This document shows, piece after piece, positions 1 to 16,076 of a stretch of DNA of 17,149 nucleotides. A model generated the notes under the pieces. It made no database searches. It was not told where the DNA came from and saw nothing but the letters and a program-made list of their open reading frames with translations. The number at the start of each line of letters is the position of its first letter. Positions within the stretch are counted from its first letter, which is position 1. Origin of the DNA: a virus (taxonomy: Duplodnaviria > Heunggongvirae > Uroviricota > Caudoviricetes); IMG/VR virus record IMGVR_UViG_2606217105_000018, positions 1 to 17,149 of that record; one strand, given 5' to 3'. The translations under genes were made by a program, and so were the position numbers.

Positions 1-1194
1 ATGGCGCGCATCACACGCCCCCTCACTAACAACGAGATCCTTAAAGCTAAACCCCGAGAAAAAGATTTCACTCTGCATGATGGGGACGGCCTGTTCTTAC
101 TCGTGAAAACATCTGGTAAAAAGCTCTGGCGCTTCCGATACCAACGTCCGGTAAGTAATAGCCGAACTAATCTGAGTCTCGGCTCATACCCTGCCATTAC
201 ACTCGCAGCTGCTCGCCAGTTACGCGACCAACATTTGGCTACACTCGCGCTGGGGATGGATCCACAACAGCAGCAAGAGCAAGCATCAGAGCAACGTCAG
301 ATTGAGCTGGATAGCATTTTCTCAACTGTCGCCGCCAACTGGTTCAAAATGAAGAGCAAAAGCGTCACTGAGGACTATGCGAAAGATATTTGGCGTTCTC
401 TAGATAAAGACGTATTCCCAGCAATAGGCGCGATACCTGTTCAGGAGATTAAGGCCAGAACGATAGTTGAAGCATTGGAACCAATCAAAGCACGCGGCGC
501 ATTAGAGACTGTTCGTCGCTTGGTCCAGCGCATTAACGAAATAATGATTTATGCAGTCAACACCGGCCTGATTGATGCTAACCCTGCATCAGGTGTTGGA
601 ATGGCATTTGAGAAACCCAAAAAGCAGAACATGCCCACGCTACGACCAGAAGAATTACCTAAGCTGATGCGTTCTTTGGTCATGTCAAACCTATCCGTTC
701 CGACTCGTTGCCTTATTGAATGGCAGCTCCTGACCCTTGTGCGCCCTTCTGAGGCTTCCGGCACTCGATGGGAAGAGATCGATCTCGATGCCAAACTCTG
801 GATGATTCCCGCCGAACGAATGAAGGCTAAGCGAGAACATATTGTCCCATTATCAGCACAAGCATTAGAATTACTTGATACAATGGAACCTATCAGTAAA
901 CATAGGGAGTATGTTTTCCCAAGCAGAAATGATCCTAAAAAAAATATGAATAGTCAGACGGCTAATGCGGCACTTAAACGCATAGGCTATGGTGGGAAAC
1001 TGGTCGCTCACGGATTACGTTCTATAGCAAGTACGGCCATGAACGAACATGGTTGGAATGCTGATATCATTGAATCAGCTCTTGCGCATATTGATAAAAA
1101 TGAAGTTCGTAGAGCATACAACAGGTCAACCTACTTGAGTCAACGGAGAGAGTTGATGAGTTGGTGGGCGGAAATAGTTAAACCAAGTAAGTAG
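1..1194 (+). CDS. intA: P4/CP4-57-type tyrosine integrase (IntA-like)
   Basis: 397-aa ORF. N-terminal block MAR.T.PLT..EI.KAKP...D..L.DGDGL.LL.K.SG.K.W.FRY and C-terminal block HGLRSIAST..NE.G...D.IE.ALAH.D.NEVRRAYNRS.YL.QRR..M.WWA match my recollection of conserved P4-family integrase sequence. The ORF begins at base 1, so any upstream att/tRNA lies outside the window. Confidence 0.9.
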   Translation: MARITRPLTNNEILKAKPREKDFTLHDGDGLFLLVKTSGKKLWRFRYQRPVSNSRTNLSLGSYPAITLAAARQLRDQHLATLALGMDPQQQQEQASEQRQIELDSIFSTVAANWFKMKSKSVTEDYAKDIWRSLDKDVFPAIGAIPVQEIKARTIVEALEPIKARGALETVRRLVQRINEIMIYAVNTGLIDANPASGVGMAFEKPKKQNMPTLRPEELPKLMRSLVMSNLSVPTRCLIEWQLLTLVRPSEASGTRWEEIDLDAKLWMIPAERMKAKREHIVPLSAQALELLDTMEPISKHREYVFPSRNDPKKNMNSQTANAALKRIGYGGKLVAHGLRSIASTAMNEHGWNADIIESALAHIDKNEVRRAYNRSTYLSQRRELMSWWAEIVKPSK

Positions 1195-1202
1195 ATAAAA
1201 TT

Positions 1203-2399
1203 ATGAGCGACTTCGATAGAATTGAGGAATTAGCAGGAGAAGGGGTCTACTCAGGCGTAGAACTCGAAGACGAGATGTCTCAGGATGACAACTCCGACAA
1301 GGAGCCATTCGATACAGATTCAATTTCAATTACTCCTAAGACAGTAGCATTGGATACTGTCTTACGCCGTATAAAAAATAATACAATAAAACTAGCTCCA
1401 GATTTTCAGCGTAGTTATGTTTGGGATAAAAAAAGGAAAAGTCAGTTAATTGAATCAATGATGCTGAAGATTCCATTACCGATGTTTTATGTTTCTGAAG
1501 ATAAAAATGGTGTATGGGAAGTTGTTGATGGATTGCAGCGCCTTACTACTATTAAAGATTTCATTTTAGGACCAGACTATGATGGTAAAGGATTTAAATT
1601 ATCTGGATTAGAGTTCTGGAGCACTCCATATGATGGCTATGATTATTTTAATTTAGAGAAGAATGATGAAAATATAAAAATAATCAATAATATTATGGAG
1701 ACTGAACTATCATTCATCATTATAAACCCTGAAACACCAGAAAAAGTTAAGAGAAATATTTTCAAGAGAATCAACACAGGTGGAATGCGGCTATCAAATC
1801 AAGAGATTAGACATGCGTTATATCAAGGGCGCGCCAGCATACTATTGAAATCCATGGTTGAAAATGATGTTTATAATGATGTTGTAGGTAGAACAGTCAA
1901 AGATGACAGAATGGCTGGTAGAGAGCTTATACTAAGGTATTTAGCTTTTACATTATTCGGCTACAATAATTATTATGGAGATATGGATGATTTTTTATCA
2001 AACACAATGAAAGCTTTAAATAATGAGAAAATTAAAGAACTTCCTTTAATTGATATACCTGAGGATGACGTTATCATTAACACATTCGAATTAGGTTTGC
2101 ACCGAACATATGAGATTTTTGGAGAACATTCTTTTCGAAAATCGTTACCTGGAGATACCAGAAAAACACCCGTTAACAAATCTCTTTTCGAACTATGGTT
2201 GTACTTATTAACAAGAGCTAAAAAAGACTCATATGACGAAATCATCTTGAAAAAAGATATTTTACTGAATGAATATAAAGACCTTCTTCAAAATTATGAG
2301 TTTATGAATTCAATAAGCCGACATGGTGCTGGAGTACAAGGCGCTAAATTTCGTAAAGATTGTCTTTTGGACTTACTAAAGAGAGTAATCAATGCTTGA
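1203..2399 (+). CDS. DUF262 (ParB/Srx-like) domain protein, cargo gene A
   Basis: 398-aa ORF. N-terminal half carries the DUF262 signature as I recall it (FQRSYVW ... IPLPMFYV ... VVDGLQRLTTI ... INTGGMRLSNQEIRHAL). No HNH/DUF1524-like His-Me motif is evident in the C-terminal half. Starts 8 bp after the int stop and overlaps the next gene by 8 bp. Region is strongly AT-rich compared with int. Confidence 0.7.
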   Translation: MSDFDRIEELAGEGVYSGVELEDEMSQDDNSDKEPFDTDSISITPKTVALDTVLRRIKNNTIKLAPDFQRSYVWDKKRKSQLIESMMLKIPLPMFYVSEDKNGVWEVVDGLQRLTTIKDFILGPDYDGKGFKLSGLEFWSTPYDGYDYFNLEKNDENIKIINNIMETELSFIIINPETPEKVKRNIFKRINTGGMRLSNQEIRHALYQGRASILLKSMVENDVYNDVVGRTVKDDRMAGRELILRYLAFTLFGYNNYYGDMDDFLSNTMKALNNEKIKELPLIDIPEDDVIINTFELGLHRTYEIFGEHSFRKSLPGDTRKTPVNKSLFELWLYLLTRAKKDSYDEIILKKDILLNEYKDLLQNYEFMNSISRHGAGVQGAKFRKDCLLDLLKRVINA

Positions 2400-3459
2400 T
2401 GAACTTGTTTTAAAATCATTTAAATCCTTTATCTATTCAAAGTTAGAACTTTCTAACATAACTGTACTCACTGGGCTAAATAGCAGTGGTAAAAGTTCAG
2501 TTCTACAAGCAATAAGAATGTGCAAATTAGTAGATAAAGACCACTCACCATATATTCAAGGATTTGGTGGGTTTACCGATCTCAAATCAAAATTGACCTC
2601 TCAACAAAAGCCTGTGCAGATTCTTCTTTCTAGTAAAGAAATGAAAAATTATCTATATCTATCACTAAGAGAAAATATAAACAAACACAGAACAAGAATA
2701 GATAGGTTTTCGGTAGAATATATCTCAGCTGATAGACATGGTCCATGCGTAACATTACCTATTATGCCTCAGGATATTGATGATATTACTGTTGGTGAAA
2801 AAGGTGAGTACTTTGCAGATTATTACTCAAAATTTGAAAGTGTTATAATACCTGAAAAACTTCGCCATGCTAATTCAACAGGAAATACGTTAAAGCATCA
2901 AATTAATCACTGGATGGGAGAAATATCACCTGGTGTTGATTTGAATTTCTCCGTTACGAAAGAGCAAGATATTTCCCATCTAGGGGTTAATGGTTTCAGA
3001 GCAACTAATACAGGGTTTGGAATAAGTTATTCACTCCCGATCGTGTTAAGTGCATTAGTAATGTCTTCAGAGGCTCCGCTAGATAGCTTCAAGCAGTCAA
3101 AAATGAAAGCATGGCATTCTAATAAAAATAAAATTTTAATAATAGAAAATCCTGAGGCGCATTTGCACCCAAAAGGCCAAACAGCTCTCGGATTATTGTT
3201 AGCTATAGCATCTTCTTGTGGTGTCCAGATAATTGTTGAAACACATAGTGACCATTTTATTGATGGCGTTCGATTAGCAGTCAAAAATGTAGGTGCTACA
3301 CTGGCTCAAAAAAGTATCATTTATTATTTTACGCGTGAGAAAGATAAGGATACAAAAATAGAGAAAATCAGAATAAAAGAAGATGGGAAGCTCACAAGCT
3401 GGCCAGAAGGTTTCTTTGACCAAAGCACAATTAATTTATCTAAATTAGCAAAAAAATAA
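2392..3459 (+). CDS. ABC/AAA_21-type ATPase (DUF3696-like C-terminus), cargo gene B
   Basis: 355-aa ORF. Walker A GLNSSGKSS near the N-terminus; Walker B-like ILIIENPEAHLHP followed by ETHSDHF (H-loop-like) near the C-terminus, typical of small SMC/ABC-like AAA_21 ATPases. The start overlaps the gene A stop (ATGCTTGA). Confidence 0.7.
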   Translation: MLDELVLKSFKSFIYSKLELSNITVLTGLNSSGKSSVLQAIRMCKLVDKDHSPYIQGFGGFTDLKSKLTSQQKPVQILLSSKEMKNYLYLSLRENINKHRTRIDRFSVEYISADRHGPCVTLPIMPQDIDDITVGEKGEYFADYYSKFESVIIPEKLRHANSTGNTLKHQINHWMGEISPGVDLNFSVTKEQDISHLGVNGFRATNTGFGISYSLPIVLSALVMSSEAPLDSFKQSKMKAWHSNKNKILIIENPEAHLHPKGQTALGLLLAIASSCGVQIIVETHSDHFIDGVRLAVKNVGATLAQKSIIYYFTREKDKDTKIEKIRIKEDGKLTSWPEGFFDQSTINLSKLAKK

Positions 3460-3461
3460 AA

Positions 3462-4370
3462 ATGAATATAATCAACTACTTAGATGAAAGATGGGTGGTG
3501 GAGTTATGTGCTAATATTCAAGATAACTCCAAAGAACTTGAGTGTTTCTTAGAATTAGCCGAAGCTGTTAAGAAAAACTGCGGGCGTTCAAGCCTCTCTC
3601 TCACCTCAAATATATGGATAATTAAATGCGGTCACGATAATTTATGTGACATCTTATATGGCCCTTTAACTCAAGATCCTGATTTAAGGGATTACCTTTT
3701 AAGACTGGCAAGAATCATTGATGAAGCTGATAGTTATGAAATAGGCAAACCTGAAACTCACGCATATAACTCAGAAGCTCATGCGGCTTTACACCATAAT
3801 AAGGCAGGAGGCCTTTTATATAAAGAAAATGAAGAATTACCTTGGTGGGATGATAGTTCCATGATATTAATTGACTGCCAAGACAAAATACTTTCTTTAT
3901 TCCGAAAACTTCCTATTTACCACAATATGGGTCTAGACGAATTTGATAGTTATCTAGAGAAATGCTTTCCTAATATATATTTTCTCGATGATGCGAGAGA
4001 TTTTTCTAAAACAGATATTAGCGAAAAAAACGACACAAAACTTTCGGTTATTATAAAGCATTTATCATATCTTAATGATCATGCACAATATGACTACCTT
4101 ATAGATCCAGAACAGTTTGAGCAAAAAGCACTTTCTCATGGTGTAGAACTATCTAGAGAAAGCAGCAGTACAAAACGAAACCAAGATGCAGTTAAAGAAA
4201 GAACAAAAAAAATAAATGAGGAGGCTCTTTTCTTTGAATTACACACCAAACTCAGTAGAGAAAAAGGTAGAATCCATTTTCATATAGGCTCAAGCCTGAG
4301 CGAAAAAATAAATAAATTAAGTGAAGGTCGTCTAATAGTTGGCATTGTGTGCAAACACTTATCAACTTAA
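3462..4370 (+). CDS. hypothetical protein, cargo gene C (no recognisable motif)
   Basis: 302-aa ORF starting 2 bp after the gene B stop; same strand and same low-GC composition as genes A and B. I could not recognise any catalytic motif by eye. Confidence 0.55.
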   Translation: MNIINYLDERWVVELCANIQDNSKELECFLELAEAVKKNCGRSSLSLTSNIWIIKCGHDNLCDILYGPLTQDPDLRDYLLRLARIIDEADSYEIGKPETHAYNSEAHAALHHNKAGGLLYKENEELPWWDDSSMILIDCQDKILSLFRKLPIYHNMGLDEFDSYLEKCFPNIYFLDDARDFSKTDISEKNDTKLSVIIKHLSYLNDHAQYDYLIDPEQFEQKALSHGVELSRESSSTKRNQDAVKERTKKINEEALFFELHTKLSREKGRIHFHIGSSLSEKINKLSEGRLIVGIVCKHLST

Positions 4371-4810
4371 TTAGTACCTCAATATTAAGCTGCCACTTTA
4401 ATCACTCATGATAAGTGGCACCTATTCATTTCAATAAAATTCCCCCTAATAAAAATCAGCACTTTTTTTTCAAATAAATAAATCAGTAACAATATTCACA
4501 TGTATAGCGGCAGAATAATTTTTTCTTAAATATCACACAATCTACATCGTGGGCCGATTTTAATGTAAGAGTACGTGTAAGGATCTAATTTGCAAAGATA
4601 GATTATTGCACGTACACATATAATTCGTTCTAAAATCTATGAGTTGCGATCATGACGCCAATAAGTATGCCTTCACGATGCGAGCCCCCCTCGTCCTGTA
4701 AGTATCCCACATCCCCCTACCTACCAATAACTTGTTGTCACTATTTATAGCTCTCTTGTTTGAATCTCAACAACAACAGTAAAAAATATGCACATTACTG
4801 CTGGCGCGCA

Positions 4811-4829
4811 ATGCTCTCCCCGCCACGCC
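4811..4829 (-). other. cos: cos-like site (P2/P4-type 19-nt cohesive end, about 16/19 match)
   Basis: Reverse complement of ATGCTCTCCCCGCCACGCC is GGCGTGGCGGGGAGAGCAT, compared with the P2/P4 cohesive end GGCGAGGCGGGGAAAGCAC as I remember it. It lies between the int-proximal cargo and psu, where cos sits in a P4 prophage. Confidence 0.4.
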
Positions 4830-4930
4830 TGCCCGCTTAAGAGGTCGCTTTTAATGCAGGTGCATGAACCAACTCAAGCCGCGCCGGTACTGGTGTTGCG
4901 TGGGATAAAAAATACGGGGATTTGCATGCA

Positions 4931-4963
4931 AAACCATGCACCTTATGGATGCATGGTTTTTTT
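4931..4963. terminator. stem-loop with T-tract, probable bidirectional terminator downstream of psu
   Basis: AAACCATGCA (4931-4940) pairs with TGCATGGTTT (4950-4959) around a 9-nt loop, followed by a run of 7 T on the plus strand. On the minus strand the same stem is followed by TTTTG about 40 nt after the psu stop. Confidence 0.45.
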
Positions 4964-5002
4964 CGGGAAAAATAGCGGAATTTTCGGGGATTTTTTTGCG
5001 TG

Positions 5003-5569
5003 CTACCGTGCGGCCAGTTCTGCACGTCGGCGGGGGTAAATCAGGTTCTGTGCCGGGGTGAATTTCTCGCGATTATCATCCCGCGAAGCCGCATCAGGCC
5101 TGAATCCGATGGCCGTTAAAATATCGTTGTCCTGCACGGAATAATTAATTTTTTTACCTGCGGCCAGCCACACCGACAGGGCTTCACGCAGATAATCAAC
5201 CGAGTGCTGCATGGCGCTCTGTTTTACTGCGGGAAGCTGTTCGTTATACCCCATCAGCTCAGGTGCCAGCGTGGCGGCCAGCTCCGCGCCGTGCTGCTGC
5301 ATAAATTCATGGAGCCGGTTGCGGATACTGATGTGCTGCACTTCCTCATGTGAGCGGATATAGCGACCGGCGGCCTGATTAATCTCCCATTTTTTCACGT
5401 CGATATCGTCGCGCAAATCCTGCATTCTGCTCGGGATTTGTTCGTCACCGGCAAGGAGCTGTTCACGGTATTCCCGTTCAAGGTCTGCCAGTTCGGCTTT
5501 ACGTTTCAGCCAGGTATTTTTGTTCGTCTGACAGGCCTCAAAGGCCTGCTGTATGGTCACAGTGGTCAC
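5003..5569 (-). CDS. psu: Psu, polarity suppression protein (P4-type, capsid decoration / Rho antagonist)
   Basis: 188-aa ORF with a GTG start preceded by AGGAG. Blocks QQAF..CQ.NK..W, VNQAAGRYIRSHE.VQHISIR.RL..FMQQHG..LAA.LAPELMGY, INYS.QD.DILT.IGFRPD.AS.DD.REKFTPAQN match my recollection of P4 Psu. Sits directly after delta on the same strand. Confidence 0.85.
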   Translation of the reverse strand: MTTVTIQQAFEACQTNKNTWLKRKAELADLEREYREQLLAGDEQIPSRMQDLRDDIDVKKWEINQAAGRYIRSHEEVQHISIRNRLHEFMQQHGAELAATLAPELMGYNEQLPAVKQSAMQHSVDYLREALSVWLAAGKKINYSVQDNDILTAIGFRPDAASRDDNREKFTPAQNLIYPRRRAELAAR

Positions 5570-5584
5570 GAGTCTCTCTCCTGA

Positions 5585-5824
5585 TTAATGCCGGAACGGC
5601 GAACTGTAGCAGCCCTGCACCTTACGCGGCGGTGGTGGCGCCACCGGCGCGGGGTCGGTTTTCTCCGGGGCGGCACGTATCACACCGTCAACCGACTCGA
5701 TGGTGCGGAAAGTGGCCGAACATTCGATATTGGTACACTGGTGATAACGCTGTTTGACGTTTTCCGACAGATAACGGCTGGTACGGACGTGCGCGGTCTT
5801 TTTGCAGAACGGACAGTGAAACAT
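5585..5824 (-). CDS. delta: Delta/Ogr-family zinc-finger late-gene activator
   Basis: 79-aa ORF MFHCPFC..TAHVRTSRY......RYHQC.N..CSATF with the C-x2-C ... C-x4-C Ogr/Delta zinc-finger pattern. Lies between sid and psu as in P4. Confidence 0.85.
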   Translation of the reverse strand: MFHCPFCKKTAHVRTSRYLSENVKQRYHQCTNIECSATFRTIESVDGVIRAAPEKTDPAPVAPPPPRKVQGCYSSPFRH

Positions 5825-5827
5825 GAT

Positions 5828-6573
5828 TCAGCCCTCTGCCTGTTCGTGGTCTTTTGCGGCCAGTTCAGCGGCAAGCTTCATCCGTCTGGCCGGGCTTCTT
5901 AACAGCGCCATATCAACCCCGGTTATGACCGGGCGATTCATGCCCGTTACGGACAGAACCGGCTCCTGCTCCATATCGAAATGATACAGGGCTGACTGCA
6001 GATTCAGGGCATCGCCCAGCTCGCGGGTCACGGTCGCACGCGGCGAGGTTTCTCCGCTCATTTCCAGCGACCGTATACGCAACAGAAAGGCACGTAACAG
6101 TGCGGGGCTGATACCGGCCAGCACTTTCTTCCATTCGCTGTTGGCGTAAGTGGTGAATGCTTTTTCGTGGGCGCTGATATAAGCCGTACCGGAGGAGCAT
6201 GCGCCAAGCATGGCGAGGCCTTTGTCTTTCTCCAGCTCGGTAATCAGACCGGTGAACTCATCAGCCAGTTCTCGGCTGGCGATACGTTTACTGTGTTCAG
6301 CTTTCAGTTCAGGAGTGAGGTTGCCGCGCAGAGTTCGAAAGCGGCTGCGCCAGTCCTGTTCGGCCTGTGCACTTTCACTGAGCGCGGTCTGTCGTTCCTG
6401 CTCACAACGCTGAATGGAAGCCTCAATGTCGCTGAGTTTACCCATGCTGGCCGTGTGTGCGTCTTTTGCTTCGTTAAGTGCGGCCAGCGCACCGGCAATA
6501 AGTTGTTCCGCGCCTTCATCCTGTTTACTGATAACGGTCTGCATGGCTTTGATAATGAGTTCGGGTTTCATGT
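5828..6573 (-). CDS. sid: Sid-like external scaffold (capsid size determination) protein
   Basis: Ala/Glu-rich, probably coiled-coil, protein immediately upstream of delta-psu on the same strand. I prefer the ATG at 6573 (MKPELI..., GGAG about 8 nt upstream) over the longer ORF starting at 6637, because a TGT-N12-ACA dyad at 6644-6661 would otherwise fall inside the coding region. Confidence 0.65.
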
Positions 6574-6643
6574 TCAGGCTCTCCGTGTGTTCAACCTGAA
6601 ATGATTCTGACGCCTCCTGCACAACAACACGATTCATTGCCGT

Positions 6644-6661
6644 TGTCAGAGTGCTGGCACA
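6644..6661 (-). promoter_or_regulatory. TGT-N12-ACA dyad, candidate Delta/Ogr activator site of a Psid-like late promoter
   Basis: TGTcagagtgctggcACA centred about 80 bp upstream of the proposed sid start. P2/P4 late promoters carry a TGT-N12-ACA element near -55. Such a 6-nt-defined dyad also occurs by chance, so position is the main argument. Confidence 0.3.
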
Positions 6662-6740
6662 AACAGACCTTAAAATCAGGCTGGCCAGAGAAAGGTCGCA
6701 GGAAAACCTTACTCACCGTTTGTTTTTTTACTTATAACTA

Positions 6741-6842
6741 TTCACCACTGTTCACCTTAAATAAAAAGATAAGTAATACAGTAAGTTAAATGGTTAACAG
6801 TTGAAGGTCTGACTGTTCACCGTCTGTTCACCACTGTTCACC
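6741..6842. repeat. cluster of TGTTCACC iterons (P4 ori-like alpha-binding sites)
   Basis: TGTTCACC at 6749-6756, 6814-6821, 6825-6832 and 6835-6842, plus a partial copy at 6741-6748, in the sid/vis divergent intergenic region. This octamer is the P4 type I iteron bound by alpha protein. Confidence 0.6.
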
Positions 6843-6924
6843 CTCCTGTTTTGCTCTGGTTATAGCATTTAGACTTTATTTTGATTAAAAATGAAAAATA
6901 TATAACTAAAAGCAATAGAAATTG

Positions 6925-6984
6925 CTGCATTGTAATGCAGTGATTTGCATATGTTTGCCAGCGTTTGCCATTGTTTGCCAGAGC
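6925..6984. promoter_or_regulatory. palindrome TGCATTGTAATGCA followed by three direct GTTTGCCA repeats upstream of the vis-like gene
   Basis: The sequence TGCATTGTAATGCAgtgatttgcatatGTTTGCCAgcGTTTGCCAttGTTTGCCAgag can be read directly. It lies about 130-180 bp upstream of the 7109 start, so it is a candidate operator for the early/late switch. Confidence 0.3.
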
Positions 6985-7108
6985 GAAAAGTCAATGTTTG
7001 TTTCCCCGAAAATCTCACATGACCTGAGGAAAAATATAGACATAATAAGGAGCTACCCGAAGCCGGACGGACACGACCGGCACTGTATGGACTTTGTGAG
7101 GTAGCCCG

Positions 7109-7375
7109 ATGCACACTGCTTTTTCTTCCCCGTCTTCTGCCCCTGCCGCGCCGCTGATGCCGGTTTCTGATACCGTTCACGAGCGCTTTATCCGTCTGCC
7201 CGAAGTGATGCATCTGTGCGGCCTGTCCCGCTCGACCATTTACGACCTCATCAGCCGGGAAGCCTTCCCGAAACAAATCTCCCTCGGCGGAAAAAATGTG
7301 GCGTGGGCGCAGTCTGAAATCACTGCATGGATGGCGGATCGCATTGCCGAACGTAACCGGGGCTATGACGCATGA
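7109..7375 (+). CDS. alpA: AlpA/Vis-family excisionase-like transcriptional regulator
   Basis: 88-aa ORF. Core [55 protein letters not shown] is a typical AlpA-family helix-turn-helix. GAGG lies about 9 nt before the ATG at 7109; an alternative start at 7157 is possible. Confidence 0.8.
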
Positions 7376-7728
7376 TGATGACCATTCAGCAAACAGCCCC
7401 TTTTTCTGGCTTGCTTCTTTTCGCCGTTTCCAGGTATAGTTTTCCCGCTGTCGCAAAATCGGCAGCCGGGCGTAGGAACCCGAGTTACTCAATGGCGACA
7501 CCGGACGCGCCATGCGTCTTTTTTTACGTCGTTGCTCAGGCACACCCATTTTTCGGGCTGTGGTGTTTACACCTTAGCCCCTGTCAGATAATGGTGATCC
7601 GGGCGGGGCAGCCTTCGGGCTGGCCGGTATTCATTGAGGCCGGTATTCCTACCCCCGTTCGGGTCACCACCCATGAGCGTAGGAACTCCGGTGGTGGCAA
7701 TAACCGCTACTCAATGGAGGTTGCCACT
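7376..7728 (+). ncRNA. candidate P4-type immunity RNA / leader region with repeated complementary boxes
   Basis: GCGTAGGAAC occurs at 7471-7480 and 7676-7685; TACTCAATGG at 7486-7495 and 7709-7718; the complementary GTTCCTAC-like box (ggtattcctaccc) at about 7640-7652. This resembles the seqA/seqB/seqC arrangement of the P4 cI RNA system. Exact RNA ends are not determinable by eye. Confidence 0.25.
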
Positions 7729-7923
7729 ATGGCTACGACCCTCACCCCGTCACACCCGCAATTTGTCTTTGTGTTTGCTGCTGTTCGTCGCGCAGACCGT
7801 ACCCCTCGTATTTGTATGCTCCGCACCGTTGCCGGTGATGAGCACGCCGCACGCCTTTCTCTCGTTCGCGATTACGTTCTCTCGTTTGCTGGCCGTCTGC
7901 CGGTTGCGGAGGTTCGCGCATGA
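7729..7923 (+). CDS. small hypothetical protein of the satellite early operon
   Basis: ATG at 7729 with GGAGG 8 nt upstream; 64 codons ([16 protein letters not shown]...). Its stop overlaps the next start (ATGA). This is the only protein-like part of the long 7372..7923 ORF. Confidence 0.3.
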
Positions 7924-8147
7924 GACACACCACCATTACCGCCCGTGACCTCGAATGTCTGGAGCATATGCGCAATGTCGGCCAGCTCGTCAATGAGCTG
8001 ATGCAGGTGCAGGACTGCGCCACCGTTCGTCGTGACCCGGCGCAGCAGTTACAGCTCACCTCCGTGATTTACCTCATGACCGCCCAGCTCGACGGCGTGG
8101 TCGAACGCTGCAATCAGCAGTGGCTGACCGGGGAGGGTAACGCATGA
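7920..8147 (+). CDS. hypothetical protein, satellite early operon
   Basis: 75-aa ORF with ATGA overlaps at both ends (translational coupling), same strand, directly upstream of the alpha operon genes. Occupies the slot where P4 epsilon would lie, but I cannot confirm identity. Confidence 0.5.
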
Positions 8148-8464
8148 AACAGCCATTACCGCCCGTATTACGCGCCGCGCTGTATCGTCGCGCCGTGGCC
8201 TGTGCATGGCTGACCCTGTGCGAACGCCAGCACCGCTACCCGCACCTCACCCTCGACGCGCTGGAAAGCGCCATTGCCGCCGAGCTGGAGGGCTTTTACC
8301 TGCGCCAGCACGGCGAGGAAAAAGGTCGCCAGATTGCCTGTGCACTGCTGGAAGATTTAATGGAAGCCGGACCACTCAAAGCCGCGCCGTCGCTGTCCTT
8401 TTTCGGGCTGGCCGTGATGGATGAGCTTTGCGCCCGTCATATCACCGCACCGGCACTGCACTGA
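8144..8464 (+). CDS. hypothetical protein, satellite early operon
   Basis: 106-aa ORF, start overlapping the previous stop (ATGA), ending 15 bp before the alpha start. Confidence 0.5.
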
Positions 8465-8478
8465 GGGAGAAAATAACT

Positions 8479-10812
8479 ATGAAAATGAACGTAACGGAAA
8501 CCGTAAAACAGGCGTGCGGTCACTGGCCGCGCATTCTCCCTGCGCTGGGTGTGAAGGTGATTAAAAACCGCCATCAGGCCTGTCCGGTGTGTGGCGGCTC
8601 TGACCGTTTCCGCTTTGACGATAAAGAAGGGCGCGGGACGTGGTTCTGCAATCAGTGTGGCGCAGGTGACGGGCTTAAGCTGGTAGAGAAAGTGTTTGGC
8701 GTGACCCCGTCAGAAGCTGCCGGGAAGGTGAACGCCGTGACCGGCAATCTGTCGCCGGTTGCCCCGGAAGTGATTGCGGCCGCAGAGGCTGAAACCGATG
8801 CCGATCGCAAAGCGGCGGCCGAGCTGGCCGCGAAACTGATGGAGAAAACCCGACCGGCCACCGGCAACGCCTACCTCACCCGCAAGGGCTTCCCCGCTCT
8901 GGAATGTCTGACGCTCACCGTCATGCATAAAACCGGCGGCGTGACGTTCCGCGCCGGGGATGTGGTTGTCCCGCTGTATGACGATACCGTCGCACTGGTT
9001 AACCTTCAGCTTATCAATGCTGACGGTCTCAAACGCACCCTGAAAGGCGGTCAGGTCAAAGGGGCATGTCATATCATCGAAGGGAAAAAACAGGCCGGAA
9101 AACGCCTGTGGATTGCAGAGGGTTATGCGACCGCACTCACCGTGCATCACCTGACCGGGGAAACCGTCATGGTGGCGCTGTCCTCCGTGAACCTCCTTTC
9201 TCTGGCGAGCCTTGCCCGTCAGAAATATCCGGCCTGTCAGATTGTGCTCGCTGCCGACCGTGACCTTAACGGCGACGGCCAGAGTAAAGCCGCTGCGGCC
9301 GCAGATGCCTGTGAGGGCATTGTTGCCCTGCCGCCGGTGTTCGGTGACTGGAATGATGCGTTTATACAGTACGGCGAGGAGGCCACGCGCAAGACTATTT
9401 ATGACGCCATCCGGCCACCGGCGCAAAGCCCATTCGACACCATGAGCGAGGCGGAATTTACCGCCATGAGCGCCAGCGACAAGGCTTTGCGGGTGCATGA
9501 GCATTACGGTGAAGCGCTGGCGGTGGATGCGAACGGCCAGCTCCTGTCCCGCTATGAAAACGGCATCTGGAAAAATATCCCTGCCGCCACTTTTTCACGG
9601 AATGTGGCTGATTTATTCCAGCGCTTACGCGCCCCGTTCTCGTCCGGGAAAATTGCCTCGGTGGTGGAGACCCTGAAACTGATTATTCCGCAGCAGGATA
9701 CACCGGCGCGCCGTCTGATTGGCTTTCGCAACGGGGTACTCGATACTCAAAGCGGCGTATTCAGCCCGCACCACAAATCGCACTGGCTGCGCACATTGTG
9801 CGATGTGGATTTCACCCCGCCGGTGGAGGGGGAAACGCTGGAGACGCACGCGCCGAACTTCTGGCGCTGGCTCGACCGTGCAGCCGGTAAAAATCCACAA
9901 AAACGCGACGTGATTCTGGCTGCGCTGTTTATGGTGCTGGCGAACCGTTACGACTGGCAGCTCTTTCTCGAAGTGACCGGTCCCGGCGGGAGTGGCAAAA
10001 GTATTCTGGCTGAAATCGCGACCCTGCTCGCCGGAGAGGATAACGCCACGTCAGCCGATATCGACACACTGGAAGACCCGCGCAAGCGTGCCTCCCTGAT
10101 TGGCTTCTCGCTTATCCGTCTGCCTGACCAGGAAAAATGGAGCGGTGACGGCGCAGGACTCAAGGCCATCACCGGCGGCGATGCAGTTTCAGTTGACCCG
10201 AAATACCAGAATCCGTACTCAACGCATATTCCGGCGGTGATTCTGGCCGTGAACAATAACCCCATGCGCTTCACCGACCGCAGCGGCGGTGTGTCACGCC
10301 GCCGGGTGATTATTCACTTCCCGGAACAGATTGCCCCGGAGGAACGCGACCCGCAGCTCAGGGATAAAATTGCGCGCGAGCTGGCCGTCATTGTGCGCCA
10401 GCTTATGCAGAAATTCAGCGACCCGATGACCGCACGCGCACTGCTTCAGTCGCAGCAGAACTCCGACGAGGCGCTCAGCATTAAGCGCGATGCTGACCCG
10501 ACATTTGATTTTTGCGGCTATCTGGAAATGCTCCCGCAGACCAACGGGATGTTTATGGGGAATGCCAGCATCATCCCGCGGAATTATCGTAAATATCTCT
10601 ATCACGCGTATCTGGCCTATATGGAGGCCAACGGCTACAGAAACGTGCTCAGCCTGAAAATGTTCGGGCTGGGGCTGCCCATGATGCTGAAAGAGTACGG
10701 CCTGAATTATGAGAAGCGGCACACCAAGCAGGGGATACAGACCAATCTGTCGCTGAAAGAGGAAAGCTACGGCGACTGGCTGCCGAAGTGCGACGAACCC
10801 GCAGCAACATAA
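8479..10812 (+). CDS. alpha: Alpha-type primase-helicase (zinc-binding primase, TOPRIM, D5-like helicase)
   Basis: N-terminal CPVCGG...FCNQCG zinc-binding motif, a primase region, and Walker A GPGGSGKS in the C-terminal helicase part. ATG at 8479 has a strong GAGGGAGA Shine-Dalgarno and gives 777 aa, the size I recall for P4 alpha. The ORF-track start at 8428 lacks a ribosome-binding site and overlaps the preceding gene. Confidence 0.9.
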   Translation: MKMNVTETVKQACGHWPRILPALGVKVIKNRHQACPVCGGSDRFRFDDKEGRGTWFCNQCGAGDGLKLVEKVFGVTPSEAAGKVNAVTGNLSPVAPEVIAAAEAETDADRKAAAELAAKLMEKTRPATGNAYLTRKGFPALECLTLTVMHKTGGVTFRAGDVVVPLYDDTVALVNLQLINADGLKRTLKGGQVKGACHIIEGKKQAGKRLWIAEGYATALTVHHLTGETVMVALSSVNLLSLASLARQKYPACQIVLAADRDLNGDGQSKAAAAADACEGIVALPPVFGDWNDAFIQYGEEATRKTIYDAIRPPAQSPFDTMSEAEFTAMSASDKALRVHEHYGEALAVDANGQLLSRYENGIWKNIPAATFSRNVADLFQRLRAPFSSGKIASVVETLKLIIPQQDTPARRLIGFRNGVLDTQSGVFSPHHKSHWLRTLCDVDFTPPVEGETLETHAPNFWRWLDRAAGKNPQKRDVILAALFMVLANRYDWQLFLEVTGPGGSGKSILAEIATLLAGEDNATSADIDTLEDPRKRASLIGFSLIRLPDQEKWSGDGAGLKAITGGDAVSVDPKYQNPYSTHIPAVILAVNNNPMRFTDRSGGVSRRRVIIHFPEQIAPEERDPQLRDKIARELAVIVRQLMQKFSDPMTARALLQSQQNSDEALSIKRDADPTFDFCGYLEMLPQTNGMFMGNASIIPRNYRKYLYHAYLAYMEANGYRNVLSLKMFGLGLPMMLKEYGLNYEKRHTKQGIQTNLSLKEESYGDWLPKCDEPAAT

Positions 10813-10860
10813 CCTCACTCAGACCGGCAACAGCCGGTCTTTTCCTTTCTGGCCATTGCC

Positions 10861-11152
10861 ACAGGGTGAACAATCCACTGTTCACCCTTCACCGTATATT
10901 CACCCTGTATCACCATGAAATTATTGATAAAAAACCAGAGGTGAACAGTGTGAACAGTAAAACCTGAAAAAACTTTTTATCACCCCTCACATCGCCTGAG
11001 CGGACGGTTCCAGAACGAGCACAAATCACAAAGGTGAAGAGTCGACTGTTCACTCTTCACCAACCGTTCACCACTTATCATTCTGATATTAAAAAGAAAA
11101 ATAACGAGGTGAACAGTGTGAACAGTTAAATGCAAAAAAACTTTTTTTCAAT
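10861..11152. repeat. crr-like region: two direct repeats of about 110 bp, each carrying TGTTCACC/GGTGAACA iterons
   Basis: Repeat 1 is about 10873-10985 and repeat 2 about 11041-11152. Each has ctgttcac.cttcacc..., then gaggtgaacagtgtgaacagt, then an A6-8CTTTTT element. This matches the published description of the P4 cis replication region downstream of alpha. Confidence 0.6.
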
Positions 11153-11458
11153 GCTCATTGTTTAAGAAAAAAAGACCACATGAAAAAGGTGGCACATTTC
11201 TAAAGAGGGATCGTATTACTATGACATTTCATAATTGGTACACGTTTAGGTACACAACTGAAAGTTGAATACGGAAAAATCCTTTACATTTAATATATTA
11301 AGAAATTTATTCAGACTCCGCCAGCCCACCAATCATGATTGGACGGTGTAAGGACAACACCAACAAAAACAGGAAGTTAGCAGTCTCAGCAGGACACCGA
11401 CCAGACGGTGAGGAGACAAAAAAGGATACGCAAAGGAGCCGCGGCTCTCGAGTGACAC

Positions 11459-11490
11459 AAAAGCCCGCTTATGCGGGCTTTTTGTTTTTC
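11459..11490 (+). terminator. rho-independent terminator
   Basis: AAAGCCCGC-TTAT-GCGGGCTTT perfect hairpin followed by TTGTTTTTC, about 70 bp upstream of the endonuclease gene. Confidence 0.5.
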
Positions 11491-11559
11491 CCTTAAGTTC
11501 CTAGCCGCTTATCTATAACTATGGAAAAATGTTAACCCTGACTGTATGTTAACAAAGGG

Positions 11560-12774
11560 ATGTATATGTCGGTTTTTCATAACTGGCTGCTTGATATCGC
11601 AAGCGGGAATTACTTTATCTACATCAAACGCCTTTCTGCAAACGACACAGGCGCAACAGGTGGCCATCAGGTCGGACTTTATATCCCCTCAAATATCGTT
11701 GAAAAGCTTTTTCCATCTATCAATCATACTCGCGAACTGAACCCTTCAGTCTTCCTTACTGCGCATGTATCATCCCATGATTGCCCTGATACCCAAGCAC
11801 GCGCAATTTATTACAACAACCGTTATTTTGGTAAGACCCGAAACGAAAAAAGAATTACGCGCTGGGGGAGAGGAAGTCCATTACAGAACCCTGAAAATAC
11901 AGGAGCCCTCACAATTCTTGCTTTCAGGTTAAACGAACAGAACACTGACTGTTCCGAGGTAGATATATGGGTCTGCGTCAATCCCGATGAAGAGGATATC
12001 ATCGAGTCTGCTATTGGCGAAATCATACCTGGAACCCTAATTTCCGGCCCTGCCGGACAAATTTTGGGCGGATTGTCTCTTCAGCAAACTCCAGTAAATC
12101 ATAAATATGTTATTCCTGAAGACTGGAAGAAGCGTTTTCCTTCTGGAAACGAAATTATTCAATATGCTGCTGGCCATTATGCTAAAAACTCCAAGGATCC
12201 AGATGAGCAACTGATTGACCGTCGGCGTGTCGAGTATGATATTTTTCTACTCGTCGAGGAATTACATGTTCTTGATATTATTAAGAAAGGATTCGATTCT
12301 GTAGATGAGTTTATTGCATTAGCCAACTCTGTCAGTAATCGACGTAAATCAAGGGCAGGCAAATCACTTGAACTTCACCTAGAGAAGCTTTTTATCGAGC
12401 ACGGACTACGGCATTTCTCCACTCAGGCAGTTACTGAAGGTAATAAAAAACCAGATTTCCTGTTTCCTTCAGCAGAGGCATATCATAACGTTGAATTTCC
12501 TGTAGAAAACTTACGTATGCTGGCAGTAAAGACCACCTGCAAAGATCGCTGGCGTCAGATACTGAATGAAGCAGATAAAATCCATCAGGTACATTTATTT
12601 ACACTGCAAGAAGGTGTTTCTTCAGCACAATACCGAGAAATGAAAGATGCGGGTGTCAGACTCGTTGTACCATCAACTTTACATAAAAAATACCCAGAAG
12701 CAGTTAGAGAAGAATTAATAACGCTCGGAGCATTCATTACTGAGCTGATAGAGCTTTACGCTGAACTATCATAG
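11560..12774 (+). CDS. ecoRIIR: Type IIE restriction endonuclease, EcoRII family (CCWGG)
   Basis: ORF of 404 aa from 11560, or 402 aa from the ATG at 11566 which has better AAGGGA spacing. The sequence matches my recollection of R.EcoRII; size and convergent pairing with a Dcm/M.EcoRII-like methyltransferase support the call. Confidence 0.8.
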   Translation: MYMSVFHNWLLDIASGNYFIYIKRLSANDTGATGGHQVGLYIPSNIVEKLFPSINHTRELNPSVFLTAHVSSHDCPDTQARAIYYNNRYFGKTRNEKRITRWGRGSPLQNPENTGALTILAFRLNEQNTDCSEVDIWVCVNPDEEDIIESAIGEIIPGTLISGPAGQILGGLSLQQTPVNHKYVIPEDWKKRFPSGNEIIQYAAGHYAKNSKDPDEQLIDRRRVEYDIFLLVEELHVLDIIKKGFDSVDEFIALANSVSNRRKSRAGKSLELHLEKLFIEHGLRHFSTQAVTEGNKKPDFLFPSAEAYHNVEFPVENLRMLAVKTTCKDRWRQILNEADKIHQVHLFTLQEGVSSAQYREMKDAGVRLVVPSTLHKKYPEAVREELITLGAFITELIELYAELS

Positions 12775-12779
12775 GCTGA

Positions 12780-12802
12780 CTCCCGGCTTAAAAGGCCGGG
12801 AG
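12780..12802. terminator. inverted repeat between the convergent R and M genes (weak bidirectional terminator candidate)
   Basis: CTCCCGGC-ttaaaag-GCCGGGAG lies between the R stop (12774) and the M stop (12809). No clear T-tract on either side. Confidence 0.3.
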
Positions 12803-12808
12803 ATGTTC

Positions 12809-14242
12809 TCAAGGCTGCCCAGTCTTACCAGCATCAGCAGAAACAGCTTTGAGGATATAGGGTTCCAGAAGTCTGGCAACAGCTTCAAATACTGGCACCA
12901 CAACTGAGTTACCGAACTGCCGATATGACTGAGTATCTGAAACCGGAATACGGAATGGTTTCCCTCCAGGTTTTTCAAATCCCATAAGGCGTGCGCACTC
13001 TCGGGGAGTCAGCCTGCGTGGTCGACGAGCCTGATTACTCTCATTCATAAAGTCAGCCTCTCCCGTTGCCATATCCCAACCACGATCAATAAGAATTTCT
13101 GATCCGTCTTTGTGATATCTGGCAGAAAGTGTGCGTGCAATGCTTTCCTTATTCTCAGGATTGACCAACCCAAAGCCAAAACCATTCCCCTTGGCTGCAT
13201 GCTTTTTGGCGTAGTTATAAAGGTACTCCCATAGTTTTGGCGTAAGTATATATTTACTGTCGACTACAGGCTCCAGCAATTCACCAAATGATGGGCGGTG
13301 TTCCGGATAAAAACGACTGATATCACGCAAGGTAAACCCCTTGTGAATATTCAGATCTCGTCTAAATCCGACCAGAACAATACGTTCACGATGCTGAGGC
13401 AAAAAATGCTTCCCATCGATAATCTTTGGATCGTTTTTTCCCATTTCTGCAGCATCGGCAACTTCGTAGCCCAGCTCGTCAAGGGTCTCCATAATGACTT
13501 TGAAAGTTTTACCCTTATCATGGCTCTTCAGATTTTTGACATTTTCCAGCACAAAAATTGCCGGTTTTTTTGCTCGTATAATACGTGCCACGTCAAAAAA
13601 AAGTGTTCCTTGTGCTTCACATTCAAAACCATGCGCACGACCAAGTGAGTTTTTCTTACTAACACCAGCAAGGCTAAATGGCTGGCACGGGAACCCCGCA
13701 AGAAGCACATCATGATCCGGCACATGCTCATCAATATATGCATAAGCATCCGTTTCCAATACATCGGTTTTATCACTCAGCGTGACTTCCCGAATATCGA
13801 GATTGAATTTATGCACCTGTTCATCGTTAAACCAGTTGGCCTTGTATGTACGCACAGCATCTTTATTCCATTCACTGGTAAAAACACACTGGCCTCCAAT
13901 GGCCTCAAAACCTTTCCGTATCCCTCCAATTCCAGCAAATAAGTCAATGAAGCGGAAAGCATATTCCGGATGGTTTGCAGGTGGTTCTGGTAGCATCTTA
14001 CGCAGAAGAGACTCTTCTACTGAAGTCAACGATTTTGGTAAACACTTGCCATTAATCCAGCGGTTAATGGTTTCACGGCTCCACTCATTTTTTCCGACTT
14101 TTCTCAGTAATTCAGCCACATACTTCTGATCATAGATTTCCAGCACTTTCTCGATAAGCTTTTTATCATTTTCCTGTCGCAGCTTTTCTTCCGCCTCGGC
14201 TTCCTTCAGCAGATGCTGTGCCAACACTTCAAATTCAGACAT
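12809..14242 (-). CDS. ecoRIIM: C5-cytosine DNA methyltransferase, Dcm/M.EcoRII family (CCWGG)
   Basis: Motif [18 protein letters not shown], the catalytic [11 protein letters not shown] (PC motif) and ENVKNL (motif VI). Starting at the internal ATG 14242 (MSEFEVL..., GGAGG 7 nt upstream) gives 477 aa, the size I recall for M.EcoRII. The ORF-track start at 14284 has no ribosome-binding site. Confidence 0.9.
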
Positions 14243-14603
14243 AATTCCTCCAAGGGGTCTAATGGGTGAAACTTTATCACTCATTCAACCCAGAAGGAAA
14301 TGTTTTATCTGGATATTTAAACAGTGACTACAACGTAATCTAGCACTGGTGATGCTTTGTTAGGCATAGAGAATCATTCTATATACGACTAATGACAGAA
14401 AAACAGCAGACAAGTAGTTTGTTCATAAATTAACGCATACTATGTGTCTACGGTTTTCGAGACCGGTCCAATCATCAAACGAAACATAAAATTAGCTCAC
14501 ATTATGAGGAAAAGTATCTTTTTTGTACTATGTAAATTCAAAGGCTTAGCCTCATTTCTCCGATGGTTTTCTCAACACTACTGGTTGTGAGCCCTTGCAA
14601 TGA

Positions 14604-15422
<819 letters not shown>

Positions 15423-15441
15423 GTCTTTAAGTGATAAGCAT

Positions 15442-15490
15442 AAACCGCAGCACGTCATGCATACGTCGTGTCTGCGGTTTTTCTTTTTTG
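15442..15490 (+). terminator. rho-independent terminator after the GIY-YIG gene
   Basis: AAACCGCAG ... CTGCGGTTT stem enclosing a smaller palindromic loop, followed by TTTTTCTTTTTTG. Confidence 0.5.
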
Positions 15491-15491
15491 C

Positions 15492-16076
15492 TTACACGGT
15501 GTCTGGTTCTTCTGGCCACTCAATATCCGGTGCAGTTGATGTATCAACACGGTTCAGCAACACCCGATACTTTTTCCAGGCTTCCAGCAATGAGGTTTCT
15601 TCCTCCGTTGCGATTTCCAGATCTACAGCATCCTGAAGTGGCGCAATATGCTCACTGGCTACCTGCATCAGGCTGTTTTTTGTTTCTTCTGCCTCCCGGA
15701 TCCGGAACAGTTTTTCTGCTTCCGTATCCTTCACCCAGGCTGTGCCGTTCCACTTCTGATATTCCCCTCCCGGCGACAACCAGGTAACATTTTCCGGTAA
15801 CGGACCGAGTTCAGAAATAAATAACGCGTCGCCGGAAGCCACGTCATAAACCGTTTTACCCCGATGGTCTTCAACGAGATGCCACGATGCCTCATCACTG
15901 TTGAAAACAGCCACGAAGCCTGCCGGAATATCTGGTGGTGCAATATCGGTACTGTTTGCTGGCAGACCTGTATGAGGCGGAATATATGCGTCACCTTCAC
16001 CAATAAATTCATTAGTTCCGGCCAGCAGATTATAAATTTTTATGGTCCGTGCTTGTTCACTCATTCTGAATGCCAT
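15492..16076 (-). CDS. tfa: tail fibre assembly protein (Tfa family chaperone)
   Basis: 194-aa [50 protein letters not shown]..., a typical lambdoid Tfa N-terminus. Its ATG overlaps the upstream tail-fibre stop (TAATG). Confidence 0.85.

Follow-up and report, generated by a model that had tools for sequence, protein, structure and literature searches.

The immunity of the satellite phage P4 is governed by a small antisense RNA switch, the parts of which are arranged in the order PLE-seqA-t1-cI-seqC-kil/eta, the cI part giving the CI RNA with its seqB segment. Here we describe a locus with the same order of parts in a 17,149-nucleotide stretch of caudoviral DNA (IMG/VR record IMGVR_UViG_2606217105_000018, positions 1 to 17,149; hereafter the window). 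The nesting of kil within eta, the coupling to alpA and the satellite context are also the same as in P4. We consider it very likely that a P4-like satellite prophage has its immunity region here, most likely working as in P4. Its repeated boxes are the target sites and the antisense segments of the known P4 small RNA switch, with different recognition sequences. CI RNA is processed by RNase P, according to the older literature; maturation of RNAs of the C4 family, with trimming at the 3' end as well, leads to a stable product of about 77-79 nt. The abstract of Briani 2000 is said to deal with the roles of t1, t4 and timm in P4, timm being Rho-dependent.

The P4 mechanism was worked out in the 1990s. 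A passage of PMC4825925, citing Sabbattini 1995 and Briani 2000, describes CI as pairing with seqA and seqC and terminating transcription. The seqA and CI RNAs of P4-like prophages correspond to the IsrK-like and C4-like RNAs (PMC3632133), and relatives of both are already detected by the two Rfam models (PMC10111431, which also reviews what eta, kil, CI and seqA do). As a passage of PMC10111431 puts it, kil is the first translated gene after the constitutive promoter of P4 and eta is the same frame extended upstream past that promoter. Another passage of that source, summarising Forti et al. 1999, states that eta is translationally coupled to alpA and that its translation lets transcripts from the late promoter read through.

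Three further RNA systems are related to the present locus. The first is the immI region of phages P1 and P7 (C4 RNA-icd-ant), which belongs to the same Rfam family (RF01695). There the RNA lies within the leader of the operon that it represses, and two antisense segments face two-part targets, one upstream and one at the ribosome-binding site (RBS) of an open reading frame (ORF) of the Icd family, as they do here. The a'/b' and a2/b2 pairing scheme of the P1/P7 C4 RNA is reportedly that of Citron and Schuster 1990. While immI controls an antirepressor in a plasmid-prophage, the window locus precedes the replication operon of a satellite, with its primase. The second is the IsrK-orf45-anrP region of Gifsy-1 (RF01394), in which a short terminated RNA acts in trans on the read-through mRNA, activates orf45-anrP translation and triggers induction (PMC4825925). 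The first 78 nt of the window leader fit the isrK model, with two hairpins and a Rho-independent terminator, and a C4-type RNA follows, just as the C4-like processed RNA STnc1160 comes after IsrK in Salmonella. The net effect in Gifsy-1 is activation, whereas net repression is expected in the window, where kil and the primase lie downstream. Pfam and NCBIfam searches found no antirepressor (orf45-anrP) downstream in the window, where kil, a 75-aa ORF, a DUF5375 gene and the primase gene follow. The third is the anti-immunity locus of N15 and phiKO2, which also has a small processed RNA but, unlike the window locus, controls the antirepressor operon of a linear plasmid-prophage. Structurally similar systems are known to exist in N15 (PMC3632133), and window positions 7433-7696 are about 81% identical to a region annotated as "Gp30 / terminator" in Klebsiella phage phiKO2 (blastn).

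With P4 itself the locus shares direct sequence homology. Positions 7031-7913 of the window are 78.5% identical to P4 nt 8181-9109 (blastn; 883 nt, 68% of a 1.2-kb query). The homologous region of P4 holds ORF88 (vis/alpA) and the old "cI/ash" frame, and it gives matches to the C4 and isrK models of Rfam at the corresponding places. The two differ in the spacer from t1 to CI, which is 45 nt shorter in the window, and in the gene after kil, which is epsilon in P4 and an unrelated 75-aa ORF in the window.

Repeated boxes, CI-like RNA and leader RNA

Box 1 (GCGTAGGAAC) and box 2 (TACTCAATGG) each occur exactly twice in the window, both times on the plus strand (Table 1), and a repeat finder listed them as D6 and D7 among its direct-repeat families. 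When positions 7376-7728 (353 nt) were shuffled 5000 times by mononucleotide, at least two independent exact 10-mer repeats arose in only 9 cases. Therefore, the repeats are unlikely to be a product of chance. Ten plus-strand bases between the two copies of box 1 (ATTCCTACCC, 7645-7654) match the exact complement of box 1 at 8 of 10 positions, and their perfect 7-nt core TTCCTAC (7646-7652) is the exact complement of GTAGGAA. Two inverted repeats were found here, I4 (7467-7478 with 7646-7657, 92%) and I5 (7640-7652 with 7679-7691, 85%). The complement of box 2, CATTGAG (7632-7638), lies within a hairpin loop and pairs with CTCAATG. A third repeated 10-11-mer, GGCCGGTATTC (7622 and 7638), merely represents both arms of that hairpin.

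The whole window was scanned against the Rfam covariance models at gathering thresholds, and three matches were obtained: C4, isrK and IS009. The C4 match extends over the full model and includes both complements. In the predicted fold, a basal stem (7592-7608 with 7653-7669) encloses hairpin 1 (7609-7622) and hairpin 2 (7623-7644). The minimum free energy of the fold is -49.2 kcal/mol (z -4.65), and none of 200 shuffles was as stable. This cloverleaf leaves two stretches unpaired, namely the loop of hairpin 2, which is box 2' (7631-7638), and an 8-nt joint (7645-7652), which holds box 1' or seqB. The complementarity thus has two modules, the loop with box 2 and the joint with box 1, and both modules are found at both the seqA and the seqC targets.

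Relatives of the locus were sought with a 24-nt pattern taken from the invariant core of CI. The pattern gave 29 stretches in bacterial contigs with one genome per species (nearly all from Enterobacterales) and 113 in IMG/VR. One stretch, L007 (Bryobacterales), was a chance match to the pattern and was left out. Two others, L014 and L017, were kept as sequences although they come from contigs assigned to Clostridiales and Vagococcus and have the look of contamination from enterobacteria. Pairs were counted in an alignment of 30 sequences from about 20 genera. The cloverleaf was paired in 99.8% of the cells, and 6 of its 27 pairs, all in the basal stem, were changed on both sides (0 of 500 shuffles). 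Pairing between seqA and CI was kept in 83.9% of the cells, compared with 33-44% when the partner was slid, and 12 of 19 pairs were changed on both sides (0/500 shuffles). For seqC and CI, the values were 83.5% and 13 of 19 (again 0/500). The unpaired cells of each antisense module were limited to two fixed positions. Among the 139 loci with full flanks, an exact complement of the bulge of at least 7 nt was present in the seqA flank of 136 and in the seqC flank of 137, while non-cognate combinations reached at least 7 nt in 7% of the seqA-flank and 4% of the seqC-flank comparisons.

An earlier reading of the window, made from its letters alone (hereafter the sequence-only reading), had noticed two boxes, each present twice between a vis-like gene and a small ORF, and a complement between the copies. 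Its proposal was that immunity is RNA-based as in P4, an internal segment of a small processed RNA binding to two leader sites by base pairing. The boxes, the box 1 complement and the identity of the flanking genes were borne out, the start of the small ORF being the ATG at 7729 and not 7730. The proposal itself gains support from the C4/CI and isrK/seqA matches, both above their gathering thresholds (Table 1), from the homology to P4 and from the co-varying boxes, which keep their position in related satellites and change together with their complement in both the 30-locus alignment and the 139 loci. Folding agreed with it as well, since the cloverleaf exposes both antisense segments. The pairing scheme was right for box 1 and the bulge but incomplete, as box 2 also pairs with the loop of hairpin 2, a complement that had been overlooked.

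Upstream of the CI-like RNA, a putative promoter resembling PLE lies just before seqA and inside eta, predicted from homology and conservation. In the alignment with P4, its -10 element (TATAGT) falls on the "-10 consensus" marked in record X02534, and the TTGC of its -35 element also has a counterpart there. Among the 30 related loci, TTGC and TAYAGT are invariant or nearly so. The isrK-type module begins 6 nt past the -10 element. Two hairpins come first, at 7447-7466 (hairpin 1) and 7467-7482 (hairpin 2), the second of which carries box 1 in the loop; a single-stranded box 2 and the terminator follow. A variable spacer separates this module from the cloverleaf. The terminator stem (helix 3) co-varies and is kept in P4, and its position equals that of P4 t1. 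Taken together, the leader hairpins, the terminator and the seqC hairpin were paired in 96.2% of the cells, with 15 of 27 pairs changed on both sides (0/500 shuffles). The seqC hairpin by itself (helix 4) was paired in 99.3%, with 4 of 9 pairs so changed. The 5' arm of this hairpin shares bases with the 3' arm of the basal stem of CI, and the two helices are therefore mutually exclusive. A long-range helix given by RNAfold for the leader (7449-7454 with 7496-7501) conflicts with a U-to-C change in alignment column 127, because this change is compensated in the Rfam hairpin and not in the alternative helix.

The 5' part of the seqA/isrK-type RNA (7445-7472) and the 5' flank and stem of CI (7578-7605) are 71% identical over 28 nt. 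This similarity hints that the seqA-type and CI modules may have arisen by duplication.

The eta frame and the nested kil gene

The first translated gene 3' of the leader is a homologue of kil, which aligns with the 65-aa ORF of P4. The box 2 of the downstream target reaches its Shine-Dalgarno (SD) sequence GGAGG (7716-7720), with an overlap of 2 bases, and its ATG is at 7729. The kil frame continues upstream as a 183-codon ORF, the eta homologue, whose start overlaps the stop of alpA (ATGA, 7372-7375). The NCBIfam model NF033153 matches residues 131-178 of eta only, which are residues 12-59 of the nested kil. Among 114 distinct homologues, the entropies at codon positions 1, 2 and 3 of kil were 0.44, 0.36 and 0.96, respectively, a strong third-position excess. 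No such excess was seen upstream of kil, either in the CI segment (0.36/0.40/0.36) or in the spacer (0.91/1.03/0.96). Nevertheless, 93 of 100 distinct loci had no stop codon, in the frame of kil, over the 330 nt upstream of its ATG, compared with 3 and 1 of 100 for the other two frames. Judged by these codon patterns, kil, the last 64 codons of eta, is a real Icd-like protein ORF, and the first 119 codons are very probably translated yet lack protein-like constraint. The eta frame is open without amino-acid constraint. Therefore, these comparisons imply that the act of eta translation, and not the protein, would be what is conserved. The sequence-only reading had called the 183-codon ORF non-protein-like; this describes the first 119 codons well but fails for the last 64, which are kil, and the frame as a whole is kept open. 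The RNA genes overlap a functional reading frame, and neither replaces the other.

A second protein model matches the same frame. Pfam Phage_ASH (PF10554, "Ash protein family") matches residues 22-131 of eta only, which correspond to nt 7435-7764. This span takes in the promoter, the seqA RNA, the CI RNA and the seqC stretch, and no codon-position signal is found in it. PF10554 appears, from its span, to model a translated RNA leader.

These codon data also bear on whether the boxes are features of DNA or protein, such as operator repeats for a repressor or for AlpA, or a peptide motif that the 183-aa ORF encodes more than once. The copies of each box do share a reading frame, with spacings of 207 nt (box 1) and 222 nt (box 2), both multiples of 3, and the stretch is treated as protein both by PGAP (an Icd-like coding sequence, CDS) and by Pfam (Phage_ASH). 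We regard this explanation as extremely unlikely. The middle copy is an inverted complement and falls where a structured RNA is left unpaired, the alleles at the three sites change in a compensatory way at the RNA level, a codon-position signal is absent everywhere upstream of kil, and the ORF list and Pfam gave no repressor protein gene in the region.

If the locus works as in P4, the cloverleaf would be excised from the leader, with RNase P acting at its 5' end as in P4 and P1, and would yield a stable RNA some 79 nt long (predicted at about 7592-7670). In a lysogen, this CI-like RNA would act in trans by pairing with leader transcripts as they emerge. At seqA, such pairing would raise termination at 7503-7524 and constitute autoregulation. 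Pairing at seqC would stop transcription soon after the RNA gene and block kil translation. The RNA downstream is biased toward C over G (26-29 C versus 15-21 G per 80 nt, 7700-7899), and this untranslated C-rich RNA after seqC would then be exposed to Rho. In this way the operon for replication at 8144-10812, with the DUF5375 gene and that of the alpha primase, would be kept off. Transcripts from the upstream late promoter would escape this control, as ribosomes coupled from alpA would translate eta through the leader.

Just 3' of the seqC box 1, the bases CUCC (7686-7689) can pair with GGAG of the kil SD (7716-7719), and this pairing is possible in 99% of the cells over the 30 loci, although its covariation was not above that of shuffles. 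A larger fold sequestering the SD (7686-7697 with 7704-7719) fits 90% of the cells, and its covariation was likewise not above shuffles. CUCC is a possible anti-SD element of such a fold.

An inactive mRNA fold of this kind would suit a different use of the leader, namely activation of the IsrK type. The terminated leader RNA (7447-7524) would then be a positive regulator in trans: by pairing with free CI or with the CI segment that read-through transcripts carry, it would release the kil RBS and switch the locus on, either as the main activity or as an additional layer of anti-immunity. The segment scores as isrK in Rfam and ends at a genuine intrinsic terminator, which makes a separate RNA of 78 nt plausible. 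Since its boxes are those of seqC, it would compete with seqC for CI as a decoy, and the mechanism of IsrK and its homology to the seqA of P4 are on record (PMC4825925). The downstream genes, however, are an Icd-like kil and a satellite primase operon and not orf45-anrP, and the anti-SD fold shows the lack of covariation noted above. In addition, the seqA/IsrK-like element is needed for immunity or lysogeny in P4 and in the P4-like prophages of S. Typhi (PMC3632133). We therefore judge activation of the IsrK type to be unlikely and favour repression by the CI-like RNA as in P4.

Recognition alleles and predicted heteroimmunity

The boxes of the window differ from those of P4 in a coordinated manner. 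For box 1, P4 has GTGAGAA at both targets and TTCTCAC in the RNA, whereas the window has GTAGGAA at both targets and TTCCTAC. For box 2, P4 has TTCACAGG at both targets and CCTGTGAA in the loop, compared with CTCAATG, CTCAATG and CATTGAG in the window. In the pairwise alignment, compensating differences are thus found at all six box positions, three sites for each box. The segment of the window CI from loop to bulge gave duplex energies of -31.4 kcal/mol with its own seqA and -29.2 kcal/mol with its own seqC, compared with -18.3 and -17.4 kcal/mol with the seqA and seqC of P4. Shuffled targets gave means of -16.2 and -17.9 kcal/mol. Pairing of the window CI with P4 targets is thus at the level of shuffled targets, and the reciprocal comparison with the CI of P4 was alike. 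With different box alleles and cross-pairing at a random level, heteroimmunity with P4 is therefore predicted, and the element is probably heteroimmune to P4.

These energies leave intramolecular structure out of account, which is one of several points that weigh against the reading given here. The inner CI hairpins are invariant in our sample since the search pattern required them, and they provide no evidence of covariation. By energy alone, the isrK-like segment has no unusual stability (z -0.86). A scan for sigma-70 consensus promoters gave no call at the PLE-like promoter, because its -35 element is weak. Finally, homology is the source of the promoter assignment, of the RNA processing, of the predicted mature length and of all the termination steps.

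Typing of the 139 loci revealed 7 alleles of box 1 and about 13 of box 2, in 27 combinations. All three copies (seqA, CI and seqC) change together in the sampled loci. The box 1 allele of the window is the commonest, being present in 40 loci, and its exact combination occurs in 10. The mechanism is already known, and the locus represents a further member of the family, one whose specificity is not that of P4 and is frequent in sequenced Enterobacterales. We tentatively suggest, at somewhat less than even chances, that the locus is one allele of a combinatorial two-module RNA "address code" defining immunity groups among P4-like satellites. A systematic catalogue of the specificity classes of P4-like immunity was not found in the searchable literature, and a census of these elements (PMC8628076) is without any mention of RNA. 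The size and modularity of the allele repertoire, as well as the "open but unconstrained" eta frame across the family, are not obviously present in the literature searched.

The types of co-resident elements were compared in two cases: two loci of Pantoea sp. IMH (L024 and L026) differ in box 1, while two loci on separate contigs of one isolate (L101 and L105) are of the same type.

Two of the sampled loci were unusual. L014, from a contig of a metagenome-assembled genome labelled Clostridiales, is nearly identical to P4 (L001) across the leader and has a different box 1, GTGGAAA/TTTCCAC, at all three sites. It represents a natural specificity switch on an otherwise P4 background, and its taxonomic label is probably due to contamination. 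In L006 (Serratia marcescens, 224-617), the upstream box 1 (GATTGGCATC) mismatches the bulge CTGCAAG while the downstream box matches it, and the kil-like ORF is shortened to 38 aa. This locus may be a hybrid or may lie in a non-satellite context.

The satellite element and other genes of the window

The neighbouring genes include those of a P4-like satellite, from an integrase gene to a primase-helicase gene (Table 1).

Table 1. Positions of the immunity elements and of the neighbouring genes in the window.
Feature	Position	Strand	Evidence or remarks
Predicted constitutive promoter (P4 PLE homologue)	7411-7440	+	-35 TTGCTT 7411-7416, 18-nt spacer, -10 TATAGT 7435-7440
isrK/seqA-type leader RNA	7447-7524	+	Rfam RF01394, 70.9 bits (gathering 50)
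seqA box 1 GCGTAGGAAC	7470-7479	+	core GTAGGAA 7472-7478 pairs with 7646-7652
seqA box 2 TACTCAATGG	7486-7495	+	CTCAATG 7488-7494 pairs with 7632-7638
Rho-independent terminator, t1-like	7503-7524	+	stem GGACGCG/CGCGTCT 7503-7519, then T7; terminator scan
CI-like antisense RNA gene (Rfam C4)	7587-7674	+	RF01695, 81.3 bits (gathering 45), model positions 1-87 of 87
Box 2' UCAUUGAG	7631-7638	+	loop of CI hairpin 2; complementary to box 2 at both targets
seqB / box 1' ATTCCTACCC	7645-7654	+	8 nt (7645-7652) unpaired in predicted fold; TTCCTAC complements both box 1 targets
seqC hairpin	7663-7698	+	stem 7663-7671 with 7690-7698, box 1 in 18-nt loop
seqC box 1 GCGTAGGAAC	7677-7686	+	repeat and pairing with CI
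seqC box 2 TACTCAATGG	7708-7717	+	2-nt overlap with kil Shine-Dalgarno GGAGG 7716-7720
kil homologue, 64 aa, Icd-like	7729-7923	+	NCBIfam NF033153 phage_ICD_like, E 2.8e-22, residues 12-59
eta homologue, 183-codon ORF	7372-7923	+	spans promoter, both RNA genes and kil; ORF list
Integrase	1-1194		P4-like neighbour
Psu	5003-5569		P4-like neighbour
Ogr/Delta zinc finger	5585-5824		P4-like neighbour
sid-position ORF	5828-6637		no family match
alpA/vis-like gene, 88 aa	7109-7375	+	Pfam Phage_AlpA, E 3e-20; aligns with P4 ORF88
75-aa ORF	7920-8147		at the position of P4 epsilon (helper derepression)
DUF5375	8144-8464		downstream of kil
Primase-helicase (alpha)	8428-10812		downstream operon

The core gene set of P4-like satellites (PMC8628076) was present except for epsilon, which was not detected in the window. 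The 75-aa ORF at its place showed no similarity to epsilon and no Pfam or NCBIfam match. By gene content, the element would have a "Type B"-like core set lacking one component. This absence could be taken as a sign that the locus, as part of a cryptic prophage, is a silent relic that came down from a P4-like ancestor but has lost its regulatory role, the more so as one or two core genes are missing from many P4-like elements and pseudogenes of alpA are frequent (PMC8628076). Decay of this kind seems very unlikely to us, given that all the elements of the switch are intact and cognate in the window, that the neighbouring core ORFs are all of full length, and that the same allele combination recurs in 10 sampled loci, with near-identical copies in several Escherichia coli genomes.

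Three 10-bp repeats in tandem (TGTTTGCCAG / CGTTTGCCAT / TGTTTGCCAG) are located at 6952-6981, which is about 130 bp before alpA. The corresponding place in P4 is taken by its own three tandem 10-bp repeats, of "ori type 2" (CTTTAAGTGG-like), which differ in sequence from those of the window. By analogy, the window repeats may be an iteron set of the replication origin with a different specificity.

Three co-oriented ORFs of the window at 1203-4370 match NsnA, NsnB and NsnC of PADLOC (E 9e-123, 2e-99 and 3e-124). This Nsn anti-phage system occupies the known int-psu hotspot of P4-like satellites, where the 99%-related element of E. coli GF3-3 has Drt3a/b. Downstream of the primase gene are an EcoRII-like restriction enzyme (11560-12774), a C5 cytosine methyltransferase on the strand opposite to it (12809-14284) and a PD-T4-3 homologue (14649-15422). 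The third Rfam match, IS009, is of full length (229 bits against a gathering threshold of 117), lies at 15535-15733 on the minus strand, overlaps ORFs on both strands and is unrelated to the immunity region.

The E. coli GF3-3 element (L003, NZ_CP053259.1) has a 99%-identical immunity region at 9110-10465 and adjoins ssrA, the site of CP4-57. Its RefSeq annotation gives a CDS only (183 aa, "Icd-like") and no non-coding RNA for the C4 or isrK matches. Both this "Icd-like" CDS annotation and the Ash model PF10554 mislead about the RNA leader.

As a discovery the locus matters little, its mechanism being known. Its eta frame provides a natural example in which a constraint on RNA structure overlaps a constraint for translation that serves antitermination. 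The box alleles provide a prediction, readable from sequence, of which P4-like satellites would exclude each other. Such a prediction bears on the ecology of satellites with anti-phage hotspots, the element in the window included.

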